Source: Gammaproteobacteria bacterium (GTDB lineage: Bacteria > Pseudomonadota > Gammaproteobacteria > Magnimaribacterales > D2472). From it: 64,000 nucleotides of DNA. Below the pieces are notes generated by a model that searched no databases, was not told the origin of the DNA, and was given only the letters and a program-made list of their open reading frames with translations. This document shows positions 22,701-24,316 of the stretch, piece by piece (the first letter of the stretch is position 1; every line of letters begins with the position of its first letter). The DNA lies in contig JBJLIB010000012.1 in assembly GCA_045564015.1 (NCBI GenBank), positions 53,227-117,226 of the forward strand, in the 5' to 3' direction. The position numbers were made by a program, and so were the translations under genes.

Positions 22701-24259
22701 AACTGTTGTCTAAAATAGTCATATATAGATCTCGGCATTGAGCTTAACATTGCTAAAGCAGTGTCATCGCCCATTGAGCCTGTGCCCTCAAGACCATCGA
22801 GTGCAAGAGGTTTTATTACAGAGACTCTTTCTTCATTAAATAAAGAAAAAAGTTTTGATGACTTGATAAATTCAGAATGTGGAATTTTCTTTATGCCCGG
22901 ACCCTCAAATGCATCAAGAGTGGATTCAAGATAAATCGCAGATTTTTTTAACCAATCCCTATAAGGTTTACCCTGTTTAAGTTGGTCATCAATAATCTTT
23001 TGATCTAAGATTTCTCCAGATTCAGTATTTACTGCAAAAATTCCACCAGGACTAAGACGTCCTTTTTGCAGAATCTCCTCATCAGCAACGGGATAAATGC
23101 CAGTTTCAGAGGCTACGGTAATCATTCCATTGGATAACACTTGGTATCTCGCAGGCCGCAATCCATTTCTGTCCAAAACGCAGATTGCCCACTCTCCATC
23201 TGACATGACAATTCCAGCAGGACCATCCCAAGCTTCCATGTGCATTGAATTATATTCATGGAAAGCTCTAACTTCAGGATCCATTGTATGAATGTTTTGC
23301 CAAGCGGGCGGCAAGACCATTCGAATAGATCTAAAGAAATTAATCCCGCCCTTCACTAACAATTCAATCATGTTATCCAGAGCTGATGAATCAGATCCTG
23401 TTTCATTAACGAGAGATTTGAACTGACTGATGCCTGGAATAAGGGGAGTGGAAAATTTAGAGGCTCGAGCTTTAACCCAATTTCTATTTCCTCTGATTGC
23501 ATTGATTTCACCATTGTGCGCAAGAAGCCTAAAAGGTTGGGCTAAATGCCATCTTGGCTGAGTATTTGTAGAGAATCGTTGATGAAATAAACAAACCTTG
23601 GCAGTAAATGATTTTTTAGCAATATCTTTATAAAAATTACTTATTGCATCCGGCAGCATCAAGCCTTTGTAAACAATTGTTTGGCTCGACATGCTGCAGA
23701 TGTATAGCTTTTCATCATTGTTATGCAATTCTTCAATCTTCTTTCTAGCCTGCAGAAGACAGGATTCAAATCTTTCCTTGTTAAAATCTTTTGAAATGGG
23801 CGTTATAAATATCTGATTAATTTTTGGCAATGATTCAAGCGCTATTTCTCCAAGAACAGATGTGTTGATGGGTACCTCTCTAACGCACTCAAAAACTAGA
23901 TTTTCAGATTGAAGAATTTCTTTGATTGCTGGCAAGTCTTTTTTTAGTGCAGCCGATGAAAAAATTTGGGCAATACCAAATAATTCAGGCAATTTGATCT
24001 TTAGCTCTTTTCTGAGTTGCTTTTGAAAAAAGGTTTGGTTTAAATCAAACAAAAGACCGCAACCGTCTCCAGTTTTGCCATCAGCTCCGATTGCTCCTCT
24101 GTGTGTCATACTCGTTAGACCAGCAATAGAACGTTTTACAACATCTCTATTTTGAGTTCCATGTCGGTTAACTATGAGCCCAAAGCCACAATTATCCTTA
24201 GCTTGAGATTCGTGATATAGCGATATATTTGTATTTTGTTGCGGCATTAAGTTATACAT
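19799..24259 (-). CDS. gltB: Glutamate synthase large subunit (start may be ATG 24247)
   Basis: DNCGFG amidotransferase N-terminus, HQRFSTNT, AQGAKPGEGGQLPG, CKYLRICHLNNCATG 3Fe-4S motif, GXGXG C-terminal domain. Confidence 0.98.
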   Translation of the reverse strand: MYNLMPQQNTNISLYHESQAKDNCGFGLIVNRHGTQNRDVVKRSIAGLTSMTHRGAIGADGKTGDGCGLLFDLNQTFFQKQLRKELKIKLPELFGIAQIFSSAALKKDLPAIKEILQSENLVFECVREVPINTSVLGEIALESLPKINQIFITPISKDFNKERFESCLLQARKKIEELHNNDEKLYICSMSSQTIVYKGLMLPDAISNFYKDIAKKSFTAKVCLFHQRFSTNTQPRWHLAQPFRLLAHNGEINAIRGNRNWVKARASKFSTPLIPGISQFKSLVNETGSDSSALDNMIELLVKGGINFFRSIRMVLPPAWQNIHTMDPEVRAFHEYNSMHMEAWDGPAGIVMSDGEWAICVLDRNGLRPARYQVLSNGMITVASETGIYPVADEEILQKGRLSPGGIFAVNTESGEILDQKIIDDQLKQGKPYRDWLKKSAIYLESTLDAFEGPGIKKIPHSEFIKSSKLFSLFNEERVSVIKPLALDGLEGTGSMGDDTALAMLSSMPRSIYDYFRQQFAQVTNPPIDSLRESSVMSLEACFGPELNIFEESKDHARRIVSTSPVLSHKKLSALLKNPYFSSKNFDLQYSPKSNLKDALNTLTKKVVSAVRKGEIIIHLNEKLPDGNKLSINALLAVGCIHQELVRLGLRSDANLIVSSATARDTHQIACLLSFGATAVFPWLAFQTILDLTHRKELKGSPTANCAKYRKGINKGLLKIISKIGISTISSYRGSQLHEIVGLSSDIVDLSFTNTVSRVGGKTFEDLDIEMRSLNKYANSNVSEIGLGGLLKFVHGGEYHTYNPEVVKKLQEAVSTGSNKVYREYADLVNHRDPAMLRDLMKLHFPSKPKKVKPYDTKHLLKKFDSAGMSLGALSPDAHETLAEAMNSMGARSNSGEGGEAKERYGTSKMSKIKQVASGRFGVTPEYLVNAEVLQIKIAQGAKPGEGGQLPGGKVNALIAKLRYSTPGITLISPPPHHDIYSIEDLAQLIFDLKQVNPKALVSVKLVSEPGVGTIAAGVAKAYADLITISGHDGGTGASPLSSIRYAGSPWELGLSEAHQALRASNLRHKVRLQADGGLKTGLDVVKAAILGAESFGFGTGPMIAMGCKYLRICHLNNCATGVATQRRDIIDHHYIGEKERVINYFTFIANEVQEILLKLGVPNLESIIGQTQYLKDITQENPSTENIDLSPILYSDKKSTAPHYCNTSSNDPWDKGNLNAKILQDVRSSISKEHSSDFSYDISNRDRSVGAQASGLIASLYGEKGLKQKQNLNFTGSAGQSFGVWNAAGLNLKLNGDANDYVGKGMNGGKIVISSSAEYASQDSPTVLVGNTALYGATGGELYVGGCVGERFAVRNSGASAVIEGAGDHCCEYMTGGHVTVLGNVGSNFGAGMTGGFAYVLDTNRRFFDQCNRSLINLDRIVSEEMESHRKFLKQILARHIKETKSERAKLILDEFDRYEPSFWLVSPAALNIQDLLKATTANAA

Positions 24260-24293
24260 ATTAACACAATAATGTCATACTATGTCATACATA
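24251..24293. repeat. Direct repeats in the gltB/gltD divergent region: ATGTCATAC at 24272-24280 and 24282-24290, plus a degenerate GTTATACATA at 24251-24260 (cf. GTCATACATA 24284-24293)
   Basis: Read directly from gttatacata ttaacacaat aatgtcatac tatgtcatac ata; 10-bp period. Confidence 0.8.
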
Positions 24294-24316
24294 CCACGCA
24301 GAACTAAGACAATTTA

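Follow-up and report, generated by a model that had tools for sequence, protein, structure and literature searches.

The window, the whole stretch of 64,000 nucleotides that was analysed, carries the two subunit genes of glutamate synthase in divergent orientation. gltB (19799..24247, minus strand) codes for the large subunit and is inverted relative to aroK-aroB and gltD-hemE. gltD (24317..25984, plus strand) codes for a 555-aa fusion of the small subunit that matches TIGR01318 above cut-off, and hemE starts at the very next base (25985). A psiE-family gene (27084-27512) lies 68 bp after hemE, with no repeat copy upstream of it. The gltB-gltD gap measures 57 bp if gltB begins with the ATG at 24259 and 69 bp if it begins at 24247, the range given in the first-pass annotation. 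The latter ATG is probably the start, because the ATG at 24259 overlaps the predicted -10 element of gltB and is unavailable in 4 of the 21 genus loci. Within this gap the 9-mer ATGTCATAC occurs twice without mismatch (24272-24280 and 24282-24290), with the period of 10 bp that had been reported, forming a tandem arm-type-like repeat ATGTCATAC-T-ATGTCATAC (24272..24290, plus strand) with the core GTCATAC, a predicted operator.

The first-pass annotation had seen nothing comparable in other intergenic regions. The pair was the sole match with up to three mismatches in the window (shuffle mean 0.04), but as an exact 9-mer tandem with this period it is one of nine in the 0.98-Mb assembly, and four of these, including the glt pair, lie in its non-ORF DNA (about 48 kb), the other three being A/T-rich. 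A single genome is modest evidence for a non-random repeat, and conservation decides. No second direct-repeat pair with up to two mismatches at a period of 9-11 was detected by a genome-wide scan of this assembly. amtB, glnK and glnA were not found by short motifs in the assembly, which is 60% complete. Matches with one or two mismatches in relatives (nine loci inspected) were mostly intragenic and at unrelated loci, and the near-match by glnK-amtB in genome G005 lay within the preceding gene. A one-mismatch pair, GTAATACTAAGTCATAC, was observed away from gltD in nine genomes of genus g17 (family f1). A perfect inverted pair built from the glt half-site, GTATGACA-N7-TGTCATAC, lies where a 346-aa frame convergent with another gene ends (G000:C14:67503-67525); it could be the hairpin of a terminator or have arisen by chance.

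A third, degenerate copy had also been proposed about 20 bp upstream. The best-match scan returned AAGTTATAC (24249..24257, plus strand), which agrees at 7 of 9 positions. Its start, 23 bp upstream, puts it out of phase, and it runs into the region where gltB is predicted to begin. Across the genus it is variable and weakly conserved, and it is probably not an operator copy there. The idea was partly rescued by 29 relatives with a longer spacer, in which a TATCAT-like element lies exactly 20 bp upstream of the repeat.

Pfam names no family for residues 1-92 of GltD. When residues 1-65 were searched against 1.84 billion protein representatives, they matched P0030, a 392-aa tyrosine recombinase, with 41% identity over 59 aa (E 2.7e-6); the other matches were GltD fusions and Rieske fusions, with P0028 and P0022, odd or chimeric matches, left out. 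This head (24317..24502, plus strand), an integrase-derived domain of putative arm-binding type, was modelled with a pLDDT of 91 as four strands and a helix, and is followed by a linker of about 30 aa. Foldseek placed the arm-type domains 3jtz, 3rmp and 3ju0 of the HPI and HAI7 integrases as its best three matches, weakly (E 0.044 or worse), and VIA gave HPI as the best match (Z 6.4, rmsd 2.4, 58 aligned residues), tied with an unrelated chain at 6.0. Both fold scores being weak, it is sequence homology that carries the integrase origin of the head and, on this basis, the head is homologous to the N-terminus of tyrosine integrases. Only the first 75 or so integrase residues match this genome, and the remainder of the protein is GltD; neither a catalytic recombinase domain nor a core or att site, as expected of a recombinase att region, was present at the glt locus. 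Across 21 genus genomes the head has a dN/dS of 0.043, close to the 0.036 of the catalytic part, and the linker has 0.133. A profile of the head gave 2860 matches in a homology search, and each of the 120 matches listed was a close GltD fusion or a fragment. Sampling 401 genomes across the class added six weak matches outside SAR86, and the four of these whose frames were read look like ordinary phage integrases.

The window is placed in SAR86 by the name that a source gives to a 97%-identical protein. The genome set of the order comprises four families and 22 genera, a division that agrees with the SAR86 layout of a published study (PMC11582366). Using the integrase as query, head matches were located in 119 of the 137 genomes of the window's family. 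All 119 fusion-bearing genomes carry the repeat on the same strand within 60 bp upstream of the head, 116 exactly and three with one mismatch, so the predicted co-occurrence of repeats and GltD extension was confirmed. One further family genome has the site without an integrase-query match, and the head was seen in its locus sequence. The exact 17-bp core GTCATAC-N3-GTCATAC occurs once per genome in 117 of the 137 family genomes and in one of the 127 SAR86 genomes of the other three families, with a period of 10 in all 118 exact matches; the reversed control pattern was found in 0 of 264 genomes. TGTCATACT-n-TGTCATAC is invariant while the flanks drift in the 21 aligned genus genomes (those of 24 searched that gave a full-length fusion), and across 69 unique loci the core columns are invariant except for one that differs in three. 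This co-occurrence at gltD is one inherited event and indicates maintenance, not 119 independent trials. Independent support amounts to about three cassette insertions and a few integrases.

The surroundings of gltD suggest how the cassette arrived. Among 28 class-wide gltD loci, gltB is co-oriented directly upstream in 20 and divergent in none, hemE is the next gene in 19, and neither head nor repeat was found in any. The sister SAR86 family shows tandem gltB-gltD without the head (3/3 stretches), and the window's family shows aroK-aroB, inverted gltB and head-gltD-hemE (5/5 stretches). The cassette consists of a short promoter region, the repeats and the first 60 or so codons of a tyrosine-integrase-like gene, placed in frame before gltD at the gltB inversion junction. 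In the simplest history compatible with these arrangements, inversion of gltB would have left gltD promoterless and an integrase front end would have supplied promoter, sites and head; the events may have come in either sequence.

The parent integrases have repeats of their own. In an alignment of P0030 with four relatives, the R, RH and Y residues (R...RH...Y) are invariant. On plasmids, the best matches of P0030 bear the annotation site-specific integrase; no match was found in viral contigs or phage records. Eight metagenome integrase loci were fetched, and six of them have upstream DNA (L099 and L104, cut, were left out). All six carry two direct repeats of 9-10 bp with a period of 10, plus an inverted third copy, and these flank a TGnTATAGT element just before the ATG. 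Four integrase loci follow a complete tRNA-Ile and a SAR86 copy follows tRNA-Phe. Relative to its gene, the gltD pair points the opposite way from the integrases' tandem pair. These integrases (L097-L103, L183 and L184) make up a tRNA-Ile/Phe-associated tyrosine integrase family barely recognised by Pfam (E 0.021), in which tyrosine replaces the first His of the H-x-x-R motif. In G034 the integrase precedes frames that, read by eye, are methyltransferase-like and nuclease-like.

The same head was found on two other enzymes, where loci with and without it can be compared. In another SAR86 genus (family f4) it is fused to the bc1 Rieske protein PetA, ahead of the export signal. All 18 head-petA loci (17 genomes) have two TGAACA and two TGTTCA sites in the spacer after rpsI, whereas none of the eight head-less petA loci of the same genus has such sites and petA there begins 10-16 nt past the rpsI stop; L233, with no adjacent rpsI, was left out. 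The head is accompanied by a new promoter region between rpsI and petA, and without it petA comes directly after rpsI. In three genomes of the window's own genus the head is fused to an enzyme of the indolepyruvate-oxidoreductase (IOR) family, with TATACACA-type repeats at all three loci (L236-L238). Repeats were absent from the six scored IOR loci without the head, three of which (L239-L241) are syntenic, with neither head nor repeats and with the same gene immediately upstream; this control leaves out L242, whose contig is cut, and L244, in which the motif was not matched. GltD, PetA and IOR all belong to Fe-S enzyme families. The paired layout, with repeats about one turn apart beside the encoding gene, is common to these three and to the parent integrases.

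The sequence of the site also changes with the head. The residue before a conserved KS is R where the site reads ...ACACA (integrases L097, L103, L183 and L184, and IOR), K where it reads ...GAACA (integrases L100 and L101, and PetA), and T in GltD, where the reverse strand of the glt repeat reads ...TGACA; residue and site of L184 were read by eye, as the search pattern missed it. Across these few lineages, such tracking would tie the head to a DNA sequence beyond mere neighbourhood.

From this evidence we consider it likely that the repeat present before every integrase-headed gltD found in the family is an arm-type site that the head would bind, repressing gltD(-hemE) through its predicted -10 element and start. 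An operator for the GltD N-terminal domain was the prediction of the first-pass annotation, and it is supported by the co-occurrence, by homology to integrases with repeats of the same geometry, by the with/without controls at the two other genes and by the co-variation of residue and site. Binding, the promoter positions, the sign of control and the signal are inferred. Two GltD heads would bind the two copies on one helix face, and the bound heads would block RNA polymerase at the -10 and start of gltD(-hemE). Arm domains normally rely on a multimeric integrase, and the supply of two heads by GltD is our proposal. The site keeps one helical face to the back-to-back gltB promoter, and its occupancy would probably tune gltB too, which would re-couple the subunits separated by the inversion. 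The likely signal would be the level of GltD, or GltD not yet bound to GltB.

Repression is what the predicted anatomy of the gltD promoter suggests. The first copy and the spacer T read as an extended -10 element, TG-T-CATACT (24273..24281, plus strand), proposed from conservation: the spacer T is kept in 68 of the 69 unique loci and the leading T of the first copy in all 69, and their counterparts in the second copy vary. The distance from the repeat to the gltD start codon is 3-35 nt, in some genomes only 3-4 nt, and there the promoter must overlap the repeat. Transcription of gltD is predicted to start at about 24287-24289, inside the second copy, whose GTCATAC is invariant in 69/69 loci and would have the look of an operator laid over a start site. 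Overlap of the repeat with the predicted -10 is the geometry of a repressor. IntS offers a precedent: it represses the promoter of its own gene, with the arm site P'1 overlapping the -10, and mutating any one arm site did not relieve that repression (PMC2951348). Contigs of four metatranscriptome runs covered the intergenic stretch in one run and left it uncovered in three when compared with 23800-24800, and contigs cannot show starts. For gltB, transcription is predicted to begin near 24251-24252 on the minus strand. Predicted 5' leaders are very short, about 4-5 nt for gltB here (24247-24266) and less than 10 nt for gltD in several relatives (24287-24317).

The promoter of gltB raises the question of whether the head, once bound, mainly activates or positions gltB transcription or switches the overlapping promoters, instead of repressing gltD. 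The predicted extended -10 of gltB, TG-T-TAATAT (24258..24266, minus strand), was recognised by conservation, ATATT being invariant and the full ATATTA present in the 21 aligned genus genomes. Of the 69 unique loci, 65 have a minus-strand TGnTAnnnT (shuffle mean 0.6) at one of two distances from the repeat: 6-7 bp in 36 loci and 27-28 bp in 29. These offsets were picked from the data themselves; the other four loci belong to neither class, and an additional match at 15 is present in seven. Two helical turns separate the classes, and the spacing switched at least twice on the GltD tree (31 family rows and five outgroups; well-supported branches, outgroup placement unstable). This near-fixed distance argues for a role at gltB, since the distances to the start codons vary freely (gltD as above, gltB about 20-68 nt). 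So does the orientation of the pair, which relative to gltB is that of the integrases' pair to their own promoter, and so does a sigma-70 scan, which found no canonical -35/-10 promoter in the region. However, the site overlaps the only plausible -10 and start of gltD, so repression is predicted there regardless; the phasing may equally reflect polymerase-polymerase geometry between back-to-back extended -10 promoters; and the known precedent (PMC2951348) is repression. We regard a main role at gltB as unlikely.

The same anatomy allows a reading without any binding by the head, in which the repeat persists solely because it is promoter DNA handed down from the integrase promoter, and the head serves some purpose other than DNA binding, for example protein contact or stability. 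Part of the repeat's conservation can be explained by the first copy as a -10 element, as its near-invariant -10-critical T would suggest, and a captured promoter was needed once gltB was inverted. Yet the second-copy GTCATAC is invariant within the start region, a part of the promoter in which polymerase makes few demands on sequence; the strand residues of the head are conserved like the catalytic core; and the site sequence tracks the head residue across lineages. This reading appears improbable.

The first-pass annotation had offered a Pho-box-like site as an alternative, and a related version would assign the repeat to the genus's single OmpR-family regulator. TGTCAT does resemble the Pho half-site, 19 of 23 genus relatives have one PhoB-like regulator, which scores best against the PhoB model but, at 247.9 bits, falls short of its cut-off of 296.2, and the psiE-family gene is two genes downstream of gltD. 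Pho boxes, though, have a period of 11, and this repeat has a period of 10, with no period-11 pair with up to two mismatches in this assembly. The exact site is single-copy and is absent from 126 of the 127 genomes of the other three families, of which 11 of 16 sampled carry the regulator, and no PstS-family match above cut-off was obtained in five genomes of the window's family. Of these five, G011, G012 and G003 carry a PhoB-like regulator. The Pho alternative is not supported by these comparisons and is very unlikely. Hardly any credence is left for the idea that an RNA element or a small reading frame ahead of gltD (ATG TCA TAC...) explains the conservation: the first copy starts with ATG here, in frame with gltD, but all three frames relative to gltD are seen across the 69 loci, 38 of which have G as the first base of the copy; an Rfam scan gave no credible match; and transcription is predicted to start downstream of the first copy.

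Autorepression by the GltD head also suggests a wider picture, which we put forward tentatively and hold to be somewhat short of probable. In streamlined SAR86 bacteria, the promoter, arm sites and arm domain at the front of one integrase family may have been domesticated repeatedly, as a portable module through which the genes of multi-subunit Fe-S enzymes (GltD, PetA and IOR) are autoregulated. The module would have a one-residue R/K/T specificity code, and at glt it would act as a sensor of subunit stoichiometry that re-couples gltB and gltD after the inversion. About 2-6% of the microbial community in the surface ocean is SAR86, whose ammonium route is GS-GOGAT (PMC11582366). If autorepression by the GltD head holds true, one of the four SAR86 families controls glutamate synthase by an integrase fragment of about 60 residues and a single 17-bp site, without a separate regulator gene, and genome-reduced cells would gain regulation from mobile elements in one step, operator and binding domain together. 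The system is open to direct test, as it offers a small domain, a defined site, natural head/site variants and alleles with and without the cassette at two other genes.

Neither an integrase-arm/GltD fusion nor the glt site was found in full-text searches, most subscription papers lying outside their reach. Integrase autoregulation through arm sites and self-repressing enzymes are known kinds; the literature searched gave no instance of the two joined in a cassette inserted repeatedly. A close integrase system is IntS of prophage KplE1 (PMC2951348), which resembles glt in having an arm-type site over the -10 of the head-encoding gene, negative autoregulation being predicted for glt; IntS differs in being an intact integrase working with the directionality factor TorI on a mobile element, whereas at glt there is only the head, at a divergent nitrogen-assimilation pair. 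With tyrosine integrases in general (HPI Int 3JTZ/3RMP, HAI7 Int 3JU0 and lambda Int), GltD shares a small head, modelled as beta-sheet and helix, and the locus shares repeats of about 9 bp one turn apart beside the gene for that head; unlike theirs, it lacks a core-binding or catalytic domain, a tRNA, an att site and an evident recombination role, and its head sits on a housekeeping Fe-S flavoenzyme and is fixed in a whole family. The sites of OmpR-family regulators, the Pho box included, are likewise tandem direct repeats, in the case of the Pho box with TGTCAT, but the glt repeat differs in its period of 10, its single copy and a distribution that follows the GltD head and not the regulator. 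PutA, BirA and NadR are bifunctional enzyme-repressors with ribbon-helix-helix or helix-turn-helix domains. GltD resembles them in combining an intact metabolic enzyme with a small, selected domain of DNA-binding type and a candidate operator in its own promoter, through which control of that divergent promoter region is predicted, and PutA/putP is the nearest in logic. It differs from them in using a putative integrase arm-type domain that, as predicted here, arrived with its own operator, and in that three mutually unrelated Fe-S enzymes each took up this cassette in a separate event.
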